Virus record (IMG/VR): IMGVR_UViG_3300026549_002453
DNA length: 64,000 nt
Reading direction: 5' to 3' (one strand)
From: a virus
Lineage: Duplodnaviria; Heunggongvirae; Uroviricota; Caudoviricetes
The number at the start of each line of letters is the position of its first letter. Within the stretch, counting starts at the first letter, position 1. The position numbers and the translations under genes are program-made. Below are positions 38,040 through 62,687 of the stretch, piece after piece. Under the pieces are notes generated by a model. That model searched no databases, was not told the origin of the DNA, and saw only the letters and a list, made by a program, of their open reading frames with translations.

Positions 38040-39440
38040 TTATAGAGTTTGCCAAGAAAAGGGGTAAGTCGTTAGCTTAGCACATGAATTGGCTTTTAAT
38101 TAATATTTAATTATAAATATCCTAAAAGAAAGGAGGTTAAAATGTTAGTACAAAGAACAGAGCAACACATTATAGATAGACAATCTAAGTGGTACAAAAC
38201 GCTTGAAGAATTATGTCATAAAGCTAAAAACACGTACAACCAAGGTAATTATCTTATTCGGCAGGAGTTTATTAAAACTGGCAAGTGGTTGAGATATAAT
38301 GAAGTTGATAAATTAATTAAGTATAGTGACGACAATGAAAACTATTATTCTTGGATTGCTAATGCAAATCAACAAGTGCTTCGCAGATTAGACTCAACTT
38401 GGAAATCATTTTTCAATAGTATTAAAGATTGGAAAAAGAATCCCACTAAGTATAACGGTATGCCCAAGTTACCTAAGTACTTAAAGAAAGATGGATTAAC
38501 CGAGTTTGGGTTAACTACTGTACAATGTAAATTGAAGAATGATAATTTAATACATTTTCATCAAGCAATGAAAGGGTTTACTATTCAACCACAGTTTATC
38601 TATGATGATAGACTCGTGCAGTTTAAGCATTGCAGAATAGTACCTAAAAACGATAGAATTATTGTTGAATTGGTTTACACTATTAATATTCCTGATTTTG
38701 TTAAAGAAACGGGTCCTATTGGAAGTATAGATTTAGGTTTAGATAACTTCGTAACTTTTGTTGATAATCTTGGAAATCACCCAATTATCATCAACGGTAA
38801 AGGTCTAAAATCATGTAATCAATATTACAATAAGCTTATTGCAAAAACAAAGTCAGAGTTGGATAGAAACGGTAATTCAAATAAGTATTCACACTTGTTA
38901 TATTCAATAACAAATAAGCGAAACGATAAAATTAAGCATTTTATGGACAAAGCGAGCAAATACATAGTTGAAAACTGTGTCGATTTAGGAATAAAAAATA
39001 TTGTAGTCGGTAAAAATGATAATCAAAAACAATATAACAAACTCAAAAACTTTGTTCAAGTTCCATATAATCTGTTTATTCAAAAGTTAGCTTATAAATG
39101 TCAAGAAGTTGGAATTGACTTGATTCTTACTGAAGAAAGCTACACTAGTGGGACAAGTTTTATAGATGATGAATTACCAATCAAAGAAAATTATAATATT
39201 GATAGACGGATAAAAAGAGGATTATTCAAATCAAATAATGGTAAGTTGATAAATGCAGATGTAAATGCGGCTTATCAGATAATGAAAAAGGTATTCTCCG
39301 ATGCTGTGAAGCCAGGAGATATAGGGTTAGTAATGAACCCAGTTCGGGTAAATCTTAGTTTCTAAGGTTGATAGAACAAAAAAAGACTGAAAGTGTTAAC
39401 AAAGATATAATTTGTATATATTTTTAACACTTGTTAACAG
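38040..39440 (+). mobile_element. non-autonomous IS200/IS605-type (IS1341-like) element; ends approximate
   Basis: tnpB without tnpA; subterminal palindrome AAGTGTTAA 39391-99 / TTAACACTT 39424-32. Confidence 0.6.
38142..39365 (+). CDS. tnpB: TnpB RNA-guided endonuclease (IS200/IS605 OrfB)
   Basis: N-terminal HTH, RuvC-I IDLGLDN, RuvC-II EESYTS, RuvC-III INADVNAAYQI; no CxxC zinc finger. Confidence 0.92.
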   Translation: MLVQRTEQHIIDRQSKWYKTLEELCHKAKNTYNQGNYLIRQEFIKTGKWLRYNEVDKLIKYSDDNENYYSWIANANQQVLRRLDSTWKSFFNSIKDWKKNPTKYNGMPKLPKYLKKDGLTEFGLTTVQCKLKNDNLIHFHQAMKGFTIQPQFIYDDRLVQFKHCRIVPKNDRIIVELVYTINIPDFVKETGPIGSIDLGLDNFVTFVDNLGNHPIIINGKGLKSCNQYYNKLIAKTKSELDRNGNSNKYSHLLYSITNKRNDKIKHFMDKASKYIVENCVDLGIKNIVVGKNDNQKQYNKLKNFVQVPYNLFIQKLAYKCQEVGIDLILTEESYTSGTSFIDDELPIKENYNIDRRIKRGLFKSNNGKLINADVNAAYQIMKKVFSDAVKPGDIGLVMNPVRVNLSF

Positions 39441-48357: not shown

Positions 48358-48446
48358 GCCGTTGTGGTGAAATTGGCAGACACAAGGGACTTAAAATCCC
48401 TCGATTGAAACATATCGTGCTGGTTCGAGTCCAGTCAGCGGCACCA
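48358..48446 (+). tRNA. tRNA-Leu (UAA)
   Basis: Cloverleaf; AGGGA-CTTAAAA-TCCCT anticodon arm, long variable arm, TTCGAGT T-loop, encoded CCA. Confidence 0.95.
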
Positions 48447-48535
48447 TAGACTAAAATAAGTCTAAATAAACTTATGGTGGTGGAAGTTTAGAAATTTTTT
48501 CAAATCACTATTTCTCCTTTTATATAGAGGTAATA

Positions 48536-49044
48536 ATGAGAAAGTTTTTAAATTACTATAAAGAAATAGTTGCCGAATTTATCTATGATGACAGAACAAT
48601 ATATCTTTTAACAGTACTAACCATTATATTTATTATGTTAGGCACATTTATAACTATTTCTGTCGGGTTTATTACAGCCTTATATGTAATTTTATCAACA
48701 TTGATAACTATGTCGGGATTAATTCTTATAGTTATACCTATATCAATGTTTATTGCTGACAGCATTATTGAATATAGGGACAGTAAAATTAAGGAAAAAG
48801 AACCAGAAGTATTTGATATAGAAGAATTATTATGAAAGTATATTTCTTAGATAGTTATGATAATAAAAGAGAAATTGCGGAAGTACAAACTACAAAAGAA
48901 GTTTGGTCTGTAATAAATAAATTCCTAGAAGAAAGAAATTATAAATCATACTATACAAGAATGTGGTATAAAGATAATATGACTTGGATAGATGTTGGTA
49001 GTCACAGTGAATTCTTTCTTGTAGATGAAGATATTGTTAATTAA
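48536..49044 (+). other. two small CDS inside the tRNA island (48536-48835 membrane protein, 48832-49044)
   Basis: GAGGT RBS; ATGA overlap. Confidence 0.6.
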
Positions 49045-49047
49045 AAA

Positions 49048-49285
49048 TAAGTGGTGGCGGAATAGGTAGACGCTAATAGGAGAAGATGCAGGAGTCCGTT
49101 AGCTTCAAAGGGTCTAATGGCTGGTATTGCGTTACGAGGGATAGACGAAACGAAGTTAAGTAGTTCGTGATACTTTAACGGAAACGTAACCCTCGGACAG
49201 CCCAACGAAAAACCAGACAACGAGGCGTCCACGAAACGCCTACAATGTCTCGACTTCATGTAGGGTGCAAATCCCTACCCACTTA
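49048..49285 (+). ncRNA. tRNA-like RNA with a ~186-nt multi-helix insert in place of the anticodon/variable arms
   Basis: TAAGTGG/CCACTTA acceptor-like stem, Leu/Ser-type D arm GCG-GAATAGGTAGA-CGC, T arm GTAGGG-TGCAAAT-CCCTAC; no CCA. Confidence 0.75.
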
Positions 49286-49315
49286 TTTTTAAAAATATTA
49301 TGTAGAGGTGTAAAT

Positions 49316-49846
49316 ATGAGAATTGTTGATGTAACAGAAGAAAAAATCATATTTGATAATGATTCTTATATTGAATTCTATCACAAAAGAGAATGTTGTG
49401 AGTGGAATTATGCAGATTTTTCTCAAATAGAGCCCCTTGCTATATCAACAGATTTTGCCTCTCCTATAGAATTTGAATCTGTGGAGTTCTATGGGTTTAG
49501 ATTTGGAAATAAACCTCTTAAGATGTTTTTTATTCCATGTTATACAGAACAAAATGGTTGTTATGGCTATGATTTAGAGATATTATATAAAGATAAAAAT
49601 GGTAATATTTTAAACAAACTTACTACAGAGTGTAACGATGAAAAGAATTGGTGGGCAAAAGAAGCCGAAGAAATGAATACCAAATGTTTCTTAGAGGAAG
49701 TAGAAAAAGTGTGTAAGAAGTGGAATAGGTCTATTGCACATGAAGATTTTCAGGGGGCTTTTCTTATAGAGGCATACAAAGAAGATAATATAGAGTGGCT
49801 TAAAAATGCCAAGACTGCGGTAATAGACAAACCTCCACTGAGTTAA
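49316..49846 (+). CDS. hypothetical protein
   Basis: GAGGTG RBS before ATG 49316; the longer GTG-started ORF runs into the RNA gene. Confidence 0.7.
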   Translation: MRIVDVTEEKIIFDNDSYIEFYHKRECCEWNYADFSQIEPLAISTDFASPIEFESVEFYGFRFGNKPLKMFFIPCYTEQNGCYGYDLEILYKDKNGNILNKLTTECNDEKNWWAKEAEEMNTKCFLEEVEKVCKKWNRSIAHEDFQGAFLIEAYKEDNIEWLKNAKTAVIDKPPLS

Positions 49847-49907
49847 TATACCCCTATATTTCAATGATAGAATATAAGTGCTAACCAAGAAGTAAGGCAC
49901 CGAACAT

Positions 49908-49983
49908 GATGATGTAACTCAGTAGGTAGAGTAACGGCCTTTTAAGCCGTGAGTCGTGAGTTCAAACCTCACCATCATCACCA
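49908..49983 (+). tRNA. tRNA-Lys (UUU)
   Basis: 76-nt cloverleaf; ACGGC-CTTTTAA-GCCGT; TTCAAAC T-loop; CCA. Confidence 0.95.
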
Positions 49984-50062
49984 TATAGGTTCAGAATGGT
50001 TGTTACTTCGAGTATGTCCTGTATACTAGTTGGGAACCTTATTAAAAACCATTGCCTTATAT

Positions 50063-50214
50063 GAAGAACGTAGCTCATTGGTAGAGCGCAGCGGGGTTTC
50101 CGTGGGTTATTCAAGGGATAGGCTCCTACTCAAATTCGGAAAGTGAGATGTTATGAATGAAATAACGCCCTATGGCTGGTCAGTAGCAGGTTCGAATCCT
50201 ATCGTTCTTCACCA
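50063..50214 (+). ncRNA. tRNA-like RNA (152 nt) with CCA end and a ~73-nt insert in the anticodon loop
   Basis: GAAGAACG/CGTTCTTC-A-CCA; D arm GCTC-ATTGGTA-GAGC; CAGC/GCTG; T-loop TTCGAAT. Confidence 0.75.
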
Positions 50215-50321
50215 TAGTAGTAAAATAAACTACTTAATAAATTTCTCCTTTTCAATTTTTCCTTATATAGGTTGATAGGAAGGACGCATCCATACTATCG
50301 TAAAATAGGGTGCTCTAACAT

Positions 50322-50395
50322 AGGCCCTTCGTATAATGGAAGTACATCTGACTTTGACTCAGACAGCCCCTGTTCAACTCAGGGAGGGCCTACCA
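50322..50395 (+). tRNA. tRNA-Gln (UUG)
   Basis: AGGCCCT/AGGGCCT acceptor stem; TCTGA-CTTTGAC-TCAGA; TTCAACT T-loop; CCA. Confidence 0.92.
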
Positions 50396-52335: not shown

Positions 52336-53451
52336 GTGAGCAGAGTGAATAGAAACTCTTTGATATGTAAATATATACATAGTAATCCAATTACTTGGAA
52401 GAAAGATTTTGAAAACATAAATATACGAATAAAGGAACAGGACAATCTTTGTCTATTTAAATACGGCCTAGAAGCCGACTTTAACAATCCTTTAGTGCGA
52501 GAATCAAGAGGCATAATTATTGACCTTAATACTCTTGAGGTTGTTTGCATAGGATTTAATAAGTTTTTTAACGCACATGAGTCCTATGCAGATAGTATAA
52601 ATTGGGAGAGCATCAGAGTTGAAAATAAGTTAGATGGTTCAATTGTAAAGCTCTTTTACCACAATGAACAATGGAATTGGTCCACCAACGGAACAATCTT
52701 TGCTAAGGACGCTCCGTGTGAAGACCTTATTCATACCACTTATATAGACCTGATTAAGAGTGCAGTTAACTACAAAGACATAGATTATAATGTGTTAGAT
52801 ACAAGTAATACTTATATATTTGAAATTGTTGACCCTATTATGCACCCAGTAAAATATGATGAGGTAAAGCTTTATCATATTGGTACAAGAAGCAATATTA
52901 CCCTAGAAGAGAGCATTACATATATAGGCATAGAACAACCCGAAAGGTATGGGTTAAATTCTCTCGATGAAATTATTTCTTTTGTAGACCACATGAATGA
53001 GAATAAGGTCACTCAAGAAGGAGTAGTTATAGTAGACAATAATTGGCACAGAGTAAAGATAAAAAATATGAATTATTTGCAAATTCACTATTTAAAGGAC
53101 GCTGTCCTATCAAAATCAAGAGTAATAGAACTCTTGCACAATGATGACATCAATCTAGAAGAACTTACTAAGGATTATCCTCAGTATGAGCAAATATTTA
53201 ACTTTTACAGAAATAAAGAGATAGAATTATACTATGATTTACAAACGTATCTTAACTTTGTGAATCAAACGTATATTAATTTTAAGAGAGATAGAAAGAG
53301 AATTGCAGAGGTAATAAAGGATGATAAATACAAGTTTTTTGCTTTTGAATCCATAACTAGAGGGGATAATGCTCTGCAGTTATTGAAAAAATATAGACTT
53401 AAAAATATAAAAAATTATTGTAAACTGTTACCTGACTATAAAAATAGCTAG
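52336..53451 (+). CDS. T4 Rnl1-like RNA ligase
   Basis: RESRGII, KFFN, motif I KLDGS, IFEIV, EGVVI, RVKIKN..Y. Confidence 0.88.
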   Translation: MSRVNRNSLICKYIHSNPITWKKDFENINIRIKEQDNLCLFKYGLEADFNNPLVRESRGIIIDLNTLEVVCIGFNKFFNAHESYADSINWESIRVENKLDGSIVKLFYHNEQWNWSTNGTIFAKDAPCEDLIHTTYIDLIKSAVNYKDIDYNVLDTSNTYIFEIVDPIMHPVKYDEVKLYHIGTRSNITLEESITYIGIEQPERYGLNSLDEIISFVDHMNENKVTQEGVVIVDNNWHRVKIKNMNYLQIHYLKDAVLSKSRVIELLHNDDINLEELTKDYPQYEQIFNFYRNKEIELYYDLQTYLNFVNQTYINFKRDRKRIAEVIKDDKYKFFAFESITRGDNALQLLKKYRLKNIKNYCKLLPDYKNS

Positions 53452-56590: not shown

Positions 56591-57682
56591 ATGAGAAAAT
56601 TAGCAAGTATACAAATAATTAAAGATATTCGACCAATTCCAGATGCAGATAGAATAGAAGTTGCAACAATATTAGGATGGAAAGTAGTTGTAGAAAAAGG
56701 GAGATATTCTACCGGTCAAAAAGTGGTCTATTTTGAAATAGATAGTTTTTTGCCTTGTGTGGAAGAGTATGAATTTTTAAGAACATCAAGCCATGTAAAT
56801 AGTCCAATATTAGGTGAAGGCTTTAGATTAAAAACTCGTCGCTTAAAAGGAGTTTATAGTCAAGGACTTATCTTACCTATTAAAGTATGTTTTAAGGATT
56901 GTATGCCTTTATCTGAACTTGAAGAAGGTGAGGATGTTACAGAAATACTAAATATCAAAAAGTGGCAAGAACCAGAAAATGCAGTTATAGGTGGAAATCC
57001 TATTGGTAGACGACCTAATTTTATAAAGAAAACACACGAAGAAAGAATACAAAACTTTCCAAAGTTATTAGAAGAATTTTATGCTTGTGAATATGTTTAT
57101 GCTACAACTAAGATTGATGGAAGTTCTCACTCTATAGCGATTGATAGAGATAATAAATTCCGTGCTACTTCTCACAATATGGAATTACGAGATGAGGGAA
57201 GAAAAGGAAGTTTCTATGAATTTTGTAAAGAAAACAATTTGGAAGAAAAATTAAGAGCAGTAAAAGAAAAATACAACGCAAATGAGATAGTAGTACAAGG
57301 TGAGTATTATGGACCAGGAATTCAAAAAAATAAACTCGGTATGAAAAAACCTGCTTGGAGAATATTTACAGTAGATATAAACGGAGAAAGACAGGATTTA
57401 GATACAAGTAAAAATATAGCAGAAAAACTTTTTAATAAAGATAATTATTATGTTATTGCATTCGTTCCTATTGTTTGGTATGGCACGGGAGAAGAATTTA
57501 AGAAAGAGTTTCCTAATACAGAAACACTATTAAAAGCAGTAGAGGGGGATAGAGCAGAAGTATATACAAATCATCAAAATGAGGGGTGGGTTATTAGACC
57601 AACAGTTCCAAGATACTCATATACTATTCAAGGTGATTTGAGCATGAAGGTCATAAATAACAAGTATCTTCTAAAAGAGTAG
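56591..57682 (+). CDS. RNA ligase, DRB0094 family (N-terminal OB fold)
   Basis: MRKLASIQ...IPDADRIE, YFEIDS, TKIDGSS, VQGEYYGPGIQKN, EGWVIR, KVINNKYLLKE. Confidence 0.9.
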   Translation: MRKLASIQIIKDIRPIPDADRIEVATILGWKVVVEKGRYSTGQKVVYFEIDSFLPCVEEYEFLRTSSHVNSPILGEGFRLKTRRLKGVYSQGLILPIKVCFKDCMPLSELEEGEDVTEILNIKKWQEPENAVIGGNPIGRRPNFIKKTHEERIQNFPKLLEEFYACEYVYATTKIDGSSHSIAIDRDNKFRATSHNMELRDEGRKGSFYEFCKENNLEEKLRAVKEKYNANEIVVQGEYYGPGIQKNKLGMKKPAWRIFTVDINGERQDLDTSKNIAEKLFNKDNYYVIAFVPIVWYGTGEEFKKEFPNTETLLKAVEGDRAEVYTNHQNEGWVIRPTVPRYSYTIQGDLSMKVINNKYLLKE

Positions 57683-57839: not shown

Positions 57840-59515
57840 ATGACTATTTTTTGGGATTACGAGTCTCTTACTGAAGAAGAAAAGAGAAGAGAAAATAAAA
57901 AGTTAGTAGAAAAATATCCATTCTTACTACCAAGAGATTGGAACGATGAAGAACTAAAAGATTATGCTTATTCTTGGACACTTATGGACGAAATTCCGAG
58001 AGGGTGGAGAATTGCCTTCGGAGAACTACTTTTTGATGAACTTAAAAAAGAATGTGAAAGAGTTAATTATCTAAATGACCTGCGATTAGTACAACTAAAA
58101 GAAAAGTTTGGCGGACTTAGGATATATACTAATGGTGAGCCTGAGGGTTCAAATATTAACGATATTATAGAAAAGTATAGCTTACTTAGTGAAAATATAT
58201 GTATTAAATGCGGTAAACCTGATGTAAGTATGGTTAACGATAGTTGGGTTAGTCCGTATTGTTTAGATTGTTGGATTGATATTGAGCAACAATATTGGGA
58301 AGATAGAAAAGAGCCTGAAGAAATTCTCGTTGATGCTAAGGAATCTTATAATGAACTTACGCATGGAGATAATGAGATGGTTGACAAATTAGTATGGACA
58401 AGATATAGTAAAGAAGGCAAGACGGAAGAAGTTATAGACATATCAGAAACCGCAAAAAAGATAAGAGAAAACTGGAATAATTATCAGAACACTGCGGCAG
58501 TTAATGTATTTGAGAAAGGATGTTAAACATGGGACTTGATTTTGGAATATATTACAAGAAAAAGAATGAAGCAATTCCAGACTGGGAGACAGACTATAAT
58601 GCTTATTATGAATGGATGAATAAGCACGAACTCTGTTATGGTAGAAAGAGTTGGGAACTTGTTCATGCTCTTAGGCTCCCTATTGATGATGGAGAAGACC
58701 CCATTGTAGAAAAAGAGTATTGGGATGAACTCATAGCTAGTATGAAAACATTTCTTGGTGATAATGATAGTTCTTATTTTGACATTATCAGAGACGATTA
58801 TTGTGCTATAGATAAGTATCATGAAATGGATGTAGATGTCCCGCCAGACATTCTTAATAGAGTAGTGCAGTATGAAGTATGGTATGATAAGACATTTGAT
58901 GAAACACCTCATCTTGGATATGATTTTGCTCTTGGGTATCTTGCAGAATTTTATAAGGCAGATGAGCAAATACAGAAATATTTTAATGATGAGTACGAGG
59001 TGAGAGCATATGTTAGTTACTAACGTTATAGAAGTAGTTGAAAGAAATAAGAATAAAGAAATAGAAACAGTAAGAACCAGAAAAGACTTTTATGATATAT
59101 TGGTGAAATATATGGGATATGAAGTCGCTAATTGGTTTGATAATTATGATAACAATCTTAAAAGTAGAGTGGAATATTTAGAGAGTGAGGTTGAAAGTCT
59201 ATATAGACTACCATAGGAGAGGATATGTTTACAAAAGATGAGCTTATAGAAAAGATATATACAGATAGAGAGGGTAGTTTAGAATTGCACTATGACGATG
59301 CCTGCACTGTACAAAAAATATTGGTGGATAAAGGTTATTGTGTCCTTATGTCAGGCGGAGATTGTGGTGAATACGAAATTACTTGGAATTATGCAGGTGA
59401 TACAGGTAATTTAGACTTTGCTGATAAAAATAACATGGTATTTTGTAGCAAAGACTATGTAGAAATGTTAATCTTTGGTGATTACGAGGAGGAAGAAGAT
59501 GAACCTACAGAGTAG
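57840..59515 (+). other. run of hypothetical CDS (57840-58526, 58529-59023, 59010-59216, 59225-59515)
   Basis: Co-oriented; the first has QLKEKFGGLRIY...CIKCG. Confidence 0.65.
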
Positions 59516-59628
59516 ATTGGCTGAATTACTAATGCAGTTAGACAGACTCATTTTAAGTTATGAGCATCAAATTGAAGTATTAAAGCAGGAAAACGAAAGA
59601 TTAAGAAAAAGTATGGAGGAGAAAAATA

Positions 59629-59961
59629 ATGACTGATGATAAATTAATTGAAATGGGTTATAACAAATATGAGCCTACACCTATTCATACGGACAATGTA
59701 GAAGCCTGTTTCCAGAAGAGAGTAGGGGATGATAGAGGTACAAAGTATTTTATTGACATAGAAAAAAGTAAACCCTGGATGCATCCTCATACAGGAGAAG
59801 AATTCCCACCTTCTTATGAATTCACTACACAGCTGTGCTATAAAGACAATGATTGTCCATTAAATCTTAGAATGTTTGCAGGGTGTACAGCCGAACAGTT
59901 TGAAGAATTTATGGAAAAACTGTTTAATACTGGAATGTTTGATTATTATGAGGAACACTAG
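59629..59961 (+). CDS. hypothetical protein; its stop codon is completed by the first base of the IscB element
   Basis: ...GAG GAA CAC TA|G TCAAC. Confidence 0.7.
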   Translation: MTDDKLIEMGYNKYEPTPIHTDNVEACFQKRVGDDRGTKYFIDIEKSKPWMHPHTGEEFPPSYEFTTQLCYKDNDCPLNLRMFAGCTAEQFEEFMEKLFNTGMFDYYEEH

Positions 59962-60240
59962 TCAACAACCCACCACTTAGAGCCTAACGACTCTTGAAGT
60001 GGGGGCTTTGGCCCTAGTTGACTAGCCTGAGTTCTTCGAGAACTACGTTATTTAGGTCATCACACCCTGAGATGTAGCACCTAGTTCCAGGCACTGTGGC
60101 TTAGTATTAAACAGTTTTGATGGGTAGAAACAGTGTGCTAAGTGTAAAAAGCCTAAATAACATTGGCGAAGGTATGACAACGGTAGATATGCACCGGCTT
60201 ACAGCATAAAGCATATCGAAATCTAACGAAAGGAGCCGTA
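59961..60240 (+). ncRNA. omegaRNA (HEARO-type) scaffold of IscB
   Basis: GTCAAC...GTTGACTAGCCTGAG, CTACGTT, TAAACAG...CAGTGTG, ACATTGGCGAAGG blocks typical of HEARO RNAs. Confidence 0.85.
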
Positions 60241-60243
60241 CTT

Positions 60244-61479
60244 ATGGTCTATGTAATAAGTAAATCAGGACATCCGCTTATGCCTACCATGAGATATGGC
60301 AAGGTTCGCAGGATGTTAAAAGAAGGTAAAGCTAAAGTAGTTAAGAGATGTCCTTTTATCATTCAGCTCTTGTATGATGCCGAAGAAAATATCCAGCCTA
60401 TATCTCTAGGAATAGACGCAGGTTCAAAGGTTGTCGGGGTGTCTGCTACGACTAAGGACAAGGTGTTATACGAAGCTGAGGTTGAGTTAAGAAACGATAT
60501 GTCCAAAAACCTTGCAACAAGAAAGGAGTTTAGAACATCAAGACGCAACAGAAAGACCAGGTACAGAAAGCCCAGATTCCTAAACAGAGTGAAGTCTAAG
60601 CATAAAGGTTGGCTTGCTCCATCGGTTCAAGCAAAGGTAGATACTCATCTAAGGGTAGTTAGGGATGTGCATAAGATACTCCCCGTGTCAAAGATTACAG
60701 TAGAAGTTGCGTCTTTCGATATCCAAAAGATTAAGAATCCTGAGATTAAAGGCATAGAGTATCAGCAAGGCGAACAGCTGGGTTTCTGGAATGTAAGAGA
60801 GTACGTTCTTTTTAGAGACGGCCATCAGTGTAAATGCTGTAAAGGAAAATCTAAAGACACTATCCTAAATGTCCATCACATAGAGTCGAGAAAGACTGGT
60901 GGAGATGCGCCCAATAACCTTGTCACTTTATGCGAGACTTGCCACAAGGATTATCACTTAGGGAAGATAGAACTTCCTAAAACCATTAGGAGGGGCGCAT
61001 CATTTAAGGACGCAGCCTTTATGGGAGTCTTACGTTGGAGTTTTTATAACAAGCTCAAGGAGTTATACACTGACGTTCATCTGACCTATGGGTATGTAAC
61101 CAAGAACATTAGAATTAAGAATGGCTTAGACAAAACCCATTACATCGATGCAAGATGTATTTCTGGCAATCCTTTAGCAAAGCCTTTGGGATATTACTTC
61201 TATCAAAAGAAAGTAAGATGTCACAATAGGCAGCTCCATAAGGCGACAATTCTGAAGGGTGGCTACAGAAAAATGAATCAAGCACCACACGAGGTTAAAG
61301 GGTTCAGGTTAAACGATACTGTTATGGTAAAAGGTAGAGAATGGCACATCCACGGAAGGCGAATTAAAGGCAGTTTTGTTCTTGCATCCCTTTCTGGTGA
61401 AAAACTGGAAGTAGTGCCAACCAAGCTAAAGTTCGTTAGCCCAGCAGGGCATATTATTACAGAAAGGAGAAGTGCGTAG
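60244..61479 (+). CDS. iscB: IscB RNA-guided endonuclease (RRXRR/PLMP, RuvC + HNH)
   Basis: PLMP, GIDAGSK, RRNRKTRYRKPRFLNR, VEVASFD, NVHHI...NLVTLCETCH, THYIDA. Confidence 0.95.
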   Translation: MVYVISKSGHPLMPTMRYGKVRRMLKEGKAKVVKRCPFIIQLLYDAEENIQPISLGIDAGSKVVGVSATTKDKVLYEAEVELRNDMSKNLATRKEFRTSRRNRKTRYRKPRFLNRVKSKHKGWLAPSVQAKVDTHLRVVRDVHKILPVSKITVEVASFDIQKIKNPEIKGIEYQQGEQLGFWNVREYVLFRDGHQCKCCKGKSKDTILNVHHIESRKTGGDAPNNLVTLCETCHKDYHLGKIELPKTIRRGASFKDAAFMGVLRWSFYNKLKELYTDVHLTYGYVTKNIRIKNGLDKTHYIDARCISGNPLAKPLGYYFYQKKVRCHNRQLHKATILKGGYRKMNQAPHEVKGFRLNDTVMVKGREWHIHGRRIKGSFVLASLSGEKLEVVPTKLKFVSPAGHIITERRSA

Positions 61480-61539
61480 CACCGTCAAGGTGCTCCTCCC
61501 CGCCTTACATAAGACGGGGTACCTACACTGAGAAAGTTG

Positions 61540-62091
61540 ATGGATAAAACTATACTGACAGCAGTAATAGTGGCGGCATGCTCTTTTATATTGCAAAAAA
61601 CTCTTAATAATTTATTATATGGGTTTGTTATTCTTGTGTCTAGACCATTTAAGAAGGGTGATAAAATCTCTATTAGACAGATGGATAGAGAACTTGCTTC
61701 TGGTACTCTTATTAAAAGAACCCCTCTTCACATATATGTAAAAAACTACGAGCGTGATGTGTTTATTATTCCTAACTCAGTATTAGAAAATTGTACAGTT
61801 AGGAACTCTAATTATAAAGATAAGGTAAATTATACCAATTACATAAAAATCAGTTTTGATTCTGATATAGAAAAAACAAGAGGTATAATTGAACAAGTAA
61901 TACTCAACAATGAAGAAACACTTAATACAGAAGAAAATACTCATGTCATACTAAAAACTAGTGATGGCGGACTTATCTTAGAGTATAATGTAAGAACGGA
62001 AGATGTAGATAAATCGTTTGATGTGTGCAGTAAAATAAAAGAAGATATCATAACAGAAATACAAAAACATAAAGATATACAATTAGTGTAA
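61540..62091 (+). CDS. short MscS-family mechanosensitive channel protein
   Basis: One TM helix, LLYGFVILVSRPFKKGDKI, IPNSVL, cytoplasmic beta domain. Confidence 0.8.
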   Translation: MDKTILTAVIVAACSFILQKTLNNLLYGFVILVSRPFKKGDKISIRQMDRELASGTLIKRTPLHIYVKNYERDVFIIPNSVLENCTVRNSNYKDKVNYTNYIKISFDSDIEKTRGIIEQVILNNEETLNTEENTHVILKTSDGGLILEYNVRTEDVDKSFDVCSKIKEDIITEIQKHKDIQLV

Positions 62092-62102
62092 GGAGAAATA
62101 TT

Positions 62103-62687
62103 ATGGAAGACAAAACAATCTACGGTTATGTTAATGGTGAGCCTGTATATTCGGCGGAAGAGTTTAAATACAAGTCGAGAGGGTTTGGAGAAATAAAGTC
62201 CGACGCCGAACTTCTTAAATATGCTGAAAAGGTTACAGGAGGATGGATGAACGCAGGTCATCAACAAAAATTTACTCACTTTTATTTAAGTGACTATGCT
62301 TTAAGCGAGCCTTATCGTTCCCTCACCTCCAAAGAATTTGTTCGTCTCAAAGAGTTGCAAGAGCAGGCTCGTGCAGAATGGGAAGCAGAACAGGCTAAGT
62401 ATAAGTATGAAAATTATGAGGGTAAACAACTAACTGAAACTGAAGTGAGGATGTTTCTAGATAAGCGTATAAAAGATGCTGAAGAACAATGGGGAGAGAG
62501 TCATTTTTATACAGAACAAGCTAAAGAGCATAAAGATAAAATTTTAGCAAAGTTTAAAGCTGGGGAAGTTGTGCCCGTGGATACCTACGATTATGTTGCT
62601 GGATATGGGAATGGTACAGGTTCCTATGATAAGACCCTATATAGTGATGGCACTATTAAAGATGGATGCTATGGGTATTTGGATTAG
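62103..62687 (+). CDS. hypothetical protein
   Basis: 194-aa ORF with AAGGAG RBS. Confidence 0.7.
   Translation: MEDKTIYGYVNGEPVYSAEEFKYKSRGFGEIKSDAELLKYAEKVTGGWMNAGHQQKFTHFYLSDYALSEPYRSLTSKEFVRLKELQEQARAEWEAEQAKYKYENYEGKQLTETEVRMFLDKRIKDAEEQWGESHFYTEQAKEHKDKILAKFKAGEVVPVDTYDYVAGYGNGTGSYDKTLYSDGTIKDGCYGYLD

Follow-up and report, generated by a model that had tools for sequence, protein, structure and literature searches.

A transposase-less IscB element of the ISC2/OMEGA type beside an ATGG target in a phage stop/start gene junction

An IscB element between two phage genes

The window, as we call the whole 64,000-nucleotide (64-kb) stretch that was analysed, is part of a 253,880-bp contig whose tightly packed, same-strand genes, with tRNAs, two RNA ligases, a DNA polymerase, a helicase, a primase and a clamp loader among them, fit a large phage. 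Since the nearest named relatives of its proteins come from Bacillota, the phage host is likely to belong there too, as far as such relatives can tell. Searches of viral contigs with the proteins flanking the element returned no match, and the matches among annotated phages were distant and partial only. The RNA ligases (52336-53451 and 56591-57682) and three tRNA genes (48358-50392) of the window are typical of large phages that counter tRNA- or RNA-cleaving defences.

Near the end of the window, a selfish element of 1,579 bp (59961..61539, plus strand) separates 2 genes of the same strand. The upstream gene, orf110 (59629..59961, +), encodes a phage protein without a known family and contains a Shine–Dalgarno (SD) sequence, GAGG, at 59950-59953. 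The downstream gene (61540..62091, +; hereafter mscS) encodes a 183-aa homologue of small mechanosensitive channels (MscS-like; PF00924, E 2e-8; PF21082), the homologues of which are of the same length and begin at the same methionine. This phage-borne protein has one short hydrophobic N-terminal stretch, and its length is kept in approximately 30 clusters. The GC content of the element is 42%, compared with 32% in the flanks.

The sole gene of the element, iscB (60244..61479, +; 411 aa), is preceded by a strong SD (60228..60235, +; duplex energy −12.1 kcal/mol with an anti-SD that we take to be that of Bacillota 16S rRNA). Its product, a small RNA-guided nuclease that resembles Cas9, scores 382 bits against NF040563 (cut-off 175), matches the Pfam families RRXRR and HNH, and is laid out as PLMP, RuvC-I (D58), bridge helix, RuvC-II (E154), HNH, RuvC-III and a C-terminal TAM-interacting region; the set that characterizes IscB, namely PLMP, split RuvC, Arg-rich bridge helix and HNH in approximately 400 aa, is found by NF040563, PF14239 and PF01844. 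Both the layout and the catalytic residues align with those of OgeuIscB (PDB 7xht, 7utn; PMC9640706; E 7e-51), with D58, E154, H299 and D302 in RuvC and H211, H212 and H234 in HNH, which bears out the original prediction that the two nuclease sites are intact; D58, H211 and H212 correspond to D58, H209 and H210 of GstIscB. Unlike OgeuIscB, which has 496 aa, the window protein has 411, and its C-terminal TAM-interacting region could not be aligned to OgeuIscB by sequence.

[quoted passage not shown] Its 3' end may extend approximately 40 nt past 60181. In close ATGA-type relatives (L142:1030-1505, L145:9610-10000), the omegaRNA has a long insertion after the second stem, which carries short tandem repeats in L142-L144. 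The element contains no TnpA gene and so is not an autonomous ISC2Y/IS605 element, and no Y1 transposase (Y1_Tnp) was detected among the 64 window proteins scanned. The window contains another element with an RNA-guided nuclease, a 407-aa TnpB (38142-39365, +; PF01385 and PF07282), which has no adjoining TnpA and apparently lacks the C-terminal zinc-finger cysteines.

Element boundaries and the empty allele

Element-free relatives were found through homologues of the flanking genes. Two of them, L146 and L147, are sewage-type contigs from 2 ENA samples with the gene order of the window; they read GAGGAACAT TA|ATGGATAAAAC, with a 1-nt overlap of orf110 and mscS, and share 90.6% identity over 1,055 nt with the reconstructed empty allele, the junction being gapless. 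Seen against these alleles, the insertion is seamless beside a 4-nt target, with no target-site duplication. The original prediction had placed the element exactly between a stop and a start codon and had reconstructed the empty allele as a TAATG stop/start overlap; L146 and L147 carry that junction, and because they match without a gap, the reconstruction was exact.

The boundaries themselves, 59961 and 61539, are base-exact by 2 further observations. The HEARO match begins at the first base of the element, and a sister element from other samples (L090/L091; 83% DNA and 88% protein identity) at an unrelated site has identical first and last bases, with flanks that differ beyond them, so that identical ends occur at independent sites, as in IS200/IS605 elements. 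The sister copy has an SD-like AGGTG 5 nt ahead of it and is followed immediately by the ATG of an M23-like gene of 177 aa (L091). Its omegaRNA shows one compensatory change relative to that of the window, C-G to A-U, and dN/dS between the 2 iscB genes is 0.059, indicative of purifying selection. Such a low ratio between 2 copies that both sit at ATGG speaks for continued usefulness of the nuclease, although, because dS to the sister is 1.3, the signal is a long-time average and no proof of present activity.

Other siblings have other junctions: L141 has a 39-nt spacer with its own SD between orf110 and mscS, and intervening genes of 92, 51, 131 or 68 aa are present in L084-L089 and ERZ1029110. 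The orf110/mscS junction is thus a variable region among siblings. Comparison of window positions 59225-62687 with L084-L089, L141 and L146 shows small genes shuffled among siblings at approximately 90% identity in a modular fashion, with a 53-aa gene before or after orf110 and the 92-, 68- and 131-aa genes present or absent. The junctions of L084-L089 and L141 had suggested that the TAATG allele was unreal and that 40 nt were deleted after insertion, a possibility overturned by L146 and L147. A search of metagenome and viral contigs with a 19-nt junction pattern yielded 34 unrelated RBS-plus-start look-alikes, none of them with flank homology.

The Logan assembly of the sample from which the window comes (SRR7971122) breaks exactly at the left junction (L082 end/L081 start, window 59931-59960) with a 30-nt overlap and does not break at the right junction, so some reads probably diverge after the last flank base; a candidate cause is a sibling whose left flank is identical and whose right flank resembles that of L146, with the first difference at +30. 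In the same vein, L090:1-1643 consists of the element with 35 nt on the left and exactly 30 nt on the right, a bubble signature that suggests an empty allele in the same sample.

Collectively, these data confirm that the ISC2/OMEGA element is real, that it is intact and transposase-less, and that its empty allele exists.

The transposase target

In the IS200/IS605 family, the transposase recognizes its 4-nt target by means of a DNA guide, also of 4 nt, located at the base of the left-end hairpin; the first 2 bases of this guide pair in crossed order with positions −3 and −4 of the target (PMC5934647). At the left end of the element, a hairpin with a 9-bp stem in the single-stranded DNA fold (61498..61519, −) is the predicted TnpA binding site; the terminal 66 nt have a fold z of −2.1, and a hairpin occupies the same position in about 40 relatives. 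The DNA guide G_L, GGTA (61520..61523, −; TACC on the plus strand), predicts by the IS608 pairing rule the target CCAT, which reads ATGG in the plus-strand sense. ATGG is indeed found at 61540..61543 (+), where it doubles as the start codon of mscS, as well as in the empty alleles and beside the sister element. Many gut-phage IscB copies (among L002-L080, for example L008 and L016; approximately 62% identical) lack this hairpin: their ORF runs directly into ATGAA and is kept in full. TnpA could no longer move such copies; that they nevertheless keep their whole ORF is what one would expect if they were fixed elements of the homing type.

Guide and target covary in 41 distinct related element ends, for which the end was called as the first ATG after the guide, without an empty-site check and with the fourth base free to vary. 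The guide NNCC (plus strand) is followed by ATGG in 6 of 6 loci (7 of 7 with L091), and NNTC by ATGA in 32 of 35, the others being 2 ATGG and 1 ATGC (Fisher p 6e-6, uncorrected for kinship). A tree of 40 proteins implies approximately 5 changes of guide state, at least 3 of which are required by well-supported branches. Because GGTA predicts ATGG and because guide and target covary, the transposase target, judged from sequence, appears to be ATGG, which differs by one base from the published N|ATGA; the proposal of ATGG as the insertion motif thus gains support as a 4-nt motif. The longer target ATGGATAAA found no support beyond 2 or 3 loci. With ATGG both in the window and at L090/L091, the element falls outside the subgroup with N|ATGA targets, and this landing site, in place of the usual ATGA, is its sole unusual trait. 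A search of viral contigs with the left-end DNA pattern gave no match. Covariation of target and DNA guide has already been published (Meers et al. 2023, bioRxiv 10.1101/2023.03.14.532601).

Guide RNA and cutting of element-free siblings

The predicted RNA guide (59944..59960, +; approximately 16-17 nt), placed from IscB architecture, covers the terminal codons of orf110, in which the SD of mscS lies. The element is co-oriented with the operon, and no terminator-like site was found on the plus strand from 56000 to the element end; promoter and terminator counts showed no excess over shuffles. Co-orientation and the lack of a terminator-like site are consistent with a read-through omegaRNA that would take its 5' guide from the flank. 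The arrangement originally proposed, with a guide from the upstream flank and the target motif at the other end, is supported, the architecture being that described by Meers et al. 2023.

The excision joint of the element is by construction a perfect match to the guide, and no second target was found within the window. L146 and L147 differ from the guide by 2 synonymous mismatches, at positions 3 and 12 counted from the TAM; 2 mismatches are approximately the chance expectation at 90% identity and are not evidence of escape. Mismatches at positions 1-14 abolish cleavage by OgeuIscB (PMC9640706), and because positions 3 and 12 fall within this intolerant stretch, homing is likely, by analogy, to be limited to near-identical genomes. 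The earlier claim that the nuclease would cut element-free siblings is therefore weakened for the siblings observed and stands for near-identical siblings and the excision joint, which would be good targets.

A present-day main role as an inter-phage weapon or homing drive, cutting co-infecting element-free siblings to spread or to exclude them, would nevertheless suit several observations: element-free siblings with the same junction exist (L146/L147), the assembly break at the left junction and the end of L090, 30 nt past its own right junction, fit co-occurring alleles, and non-restorative homing between co-infecting phages has been discussed for OMEGA systems (PMC13565253). We nonetheless regard this role as doubtful, since the siblings observed mismatch the guide and others are without the junction altogether; furthermore, only one genome was found to carry the element at this site and empty alleles are commoner, so that the element has not swept, and the cut would fall at the 3' end of non-core genes. 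Restorative maintenance is the better supported of the two roles, with sibling competition possible but weaker.

ATGG at 61540..61543 is presumed to be the nuclease TAM, and in ISGst5, the TAM equals the transposase target (Meers et al. 2023). The C-terminal region of the window IscB (residues 345-405, window about 61276-61458) is of a minority type, which we refer to as W-type (HGRR motif), and stands in a mosaic relation to the remainder of the protein: P0057-P0059 share 85-87% identity with it over residues 1-340 and 36-39% over 345-405, and relatives at 70-75% identity carry the C-terminal type of the window, indicating that the region is swapped among close relatives. Mapping of the HGRR motif onto E460-G461-R462 of OgeuIscB was a guess that sequence alignment failed to support. 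All 5 W-type loci with DNA (window, L090/L091, L148, L149/L150 and L151) sit at ATGG.

It is conceivable, if improbable, that target and TAM have become uncoupled, the DNA guide now specifying ATGG and IscB still requiring ATGA, which would make the nuclease a passenger that leaves its own empty site uncut. P0178, a close relative, has the same C-terminal type with a flank inferred to be ATGA from its read-through tail, ATGG also stands beside the common C-terminal type (L152, L153 and L183), and GstIscB loses activity upon single TAM changes (Meers et al. 2023). Counting against uncoupling are the 5 of 5 W-type loci, the 2 ATGG copies that at a dS of 1.3 both have an intact iscB under purifying selection, and the tolerance of OgeuIscB (TAM NNRR) for any purine at TAM positions 3 and 4 (PMC9640706). 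On these comparisons, a relaxed ATGR TAM would be as likely as a true switch to ATGG, and the nuclease TAM may still be ATGA. That ATGA changed to ATGG repeatedly, each time through one DNA-guide base, and that one lineage fixed the switch through a matching C-terminal TAM module (W-type, HGRR), is a tentative idea with the odds against it. We found no paper on IscB with ATGG, a start codon or an RBS by title or abstract; the TAM survey of Altae-Tran 2021 may already report an ATGG TAM.

Placement at a start codon and cost of insertion

By crude gene calls, 449 of the 495 ATGG sites in the window (91%) lie inside genes, 30 are intergenic and 16 (3%) are gene starts. These figures speak against the suggestion that an ATG-containing TAM steers insertions to harmless gene starts; because most ATGG sites are intragenic, the start bias must come mainly from the survival of harmless, co-transcribed insertions. 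Survival of non-disruptive insertions, together with the need for same-strand read-through, is the simplest account of the placement.

Active steering to start codons by a feature beyond the 4-nt motif, such as more extended pairing, single-stranded DNA exposed at the borders of genes or a motif of more bases, for example ATGGATAA, seems to us a poor bet by comparison. It would draw on the 31 of 41 related elements that stand before an ATG opening at least 50 codons, compared with 24% of plus-strand ATGR sites, a count biased upward by the calling of right ends at the first ATG after the guide, and on the flanking bases that the window shares with L091 (9) and L148 (8). The remaining ATGG cases share only 4-5 bases, however, Met-Asp-Lys starts are common in AT-rich genomes, and selection with the orientation requirement predicts an identical pattern.

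Both reading frames remain intact in the occupied allele, as originally noted. The stop codon of orf110 is TAA in the empty allele and TAG when occupied, the G being the first base of the element, so the protein is unchanged. In contrast, mscS is deprived both of its SD, which in the empty allele is well spaced and pairs at −5.6 to −5.9 kcal/mol, and of its stop/start translational coupling with orf110, and for this reason it is uncertain that the insertion is harmless to the phage. A replacement SD at the element end, AGAAAG, is weak (−4.5 kcal/mol), ends 3 nt before the ATG and is unconvincing.

Relation to known systems and proposed mechanism

The examples of ISC2 transposons given by Kapitonov et al. 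2016 (PMC4810608) include ISC2-1_HM, ISC2-1_MS and ISC1-1_MA, which have 5'-GT(CA) ends and target N|ATGA. Like the elements described there, the window element has a single iscB, no TnpA, subterminal hairpins and a 5'-GTCA end, and is inserted just ahead of an ATG-containing 4-mer without duplication; it differs from them in its target, N|ATGG compared with GT|GG, GT|RA and N|ATGA, and in being phage-borne and located in a stop/start overlap. With ISGst5 and GstIscB of Geobacillus stearothermophilus (Meers et al. 2023), it shares a right-end omegaRNA, an external 5' guide (predicted for the window element), co-orientation with upstream genes, covariation of TAM (presumed for the window element) and DNA guide, and a donor joint that equals the target. 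The TAM there is TTCAT (ATGAA) and activity has been shown, whereas the window element is a single phage copy with an inferred ATGG. IS608 of Helicobacter pylori (PMC5934647) likewise has a 4-nt target and a 4-nt guide at the foot of the left hairpin, and its crossed rule gives CCAT from GGTA; unlike the window element, IS608 encodes TnpA and TnpB and targets TTAC.

A non-autonomous IS200/IS605 IscB (ISC2/OMEGA) transposon of the ordinary kind probably explains the locus. The element entered a pair of coupled phage genes at their TA|ATG junction with neither loss nor duplication, a step that the empty alleles document. TnpA, most likely supplied in trans from the host or elsewhere in the phage, would have placed it there by reading CCAT/ATGG through the DNA guide GGTA, a one-base variant of the ATGA guide of the family. 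Insertion at most ATGG sites would break a gene and the guide RNA would need same-strand operon read-through, two constraints that start-codon insertions would satisfy together. If the element behaves like GstIscB, read-through would yield an omegaRNA with the end of orf110 as its 5' guide, IscB would cut the element-free junction, and repair from an occupied genome would restore the element or spread it among phage copies with a near-identical junction, at the price, for the phage, of lower mscS translation. This restorative mechanism has been demonstrated for ISGst5 (Meers et al. 2023).

Earlier publications already describe this type of system, the target that contains ATG and the restorative mechanism, and ATGG is a minor target variant. 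What the locus provides is an occupied and an empty phage allele that form a natural pair resolved to the base, in which guide, target and insertion point can be read and which makes RNA-guided phage homing directly testable, including against naturally mismatched siblings. The one-base ATGA/ATGG guide switch offers a small testable handle on the co-evolution of transposase and nuclease specificity. Should the switch indeed have been repeated and fixed in one lineage, the switch lineages would be a natural series in which to test how the coupling between nuclease TAM and transposase target is maintained, and the W-type lineage would supply IscBs with an ATGG TAM.
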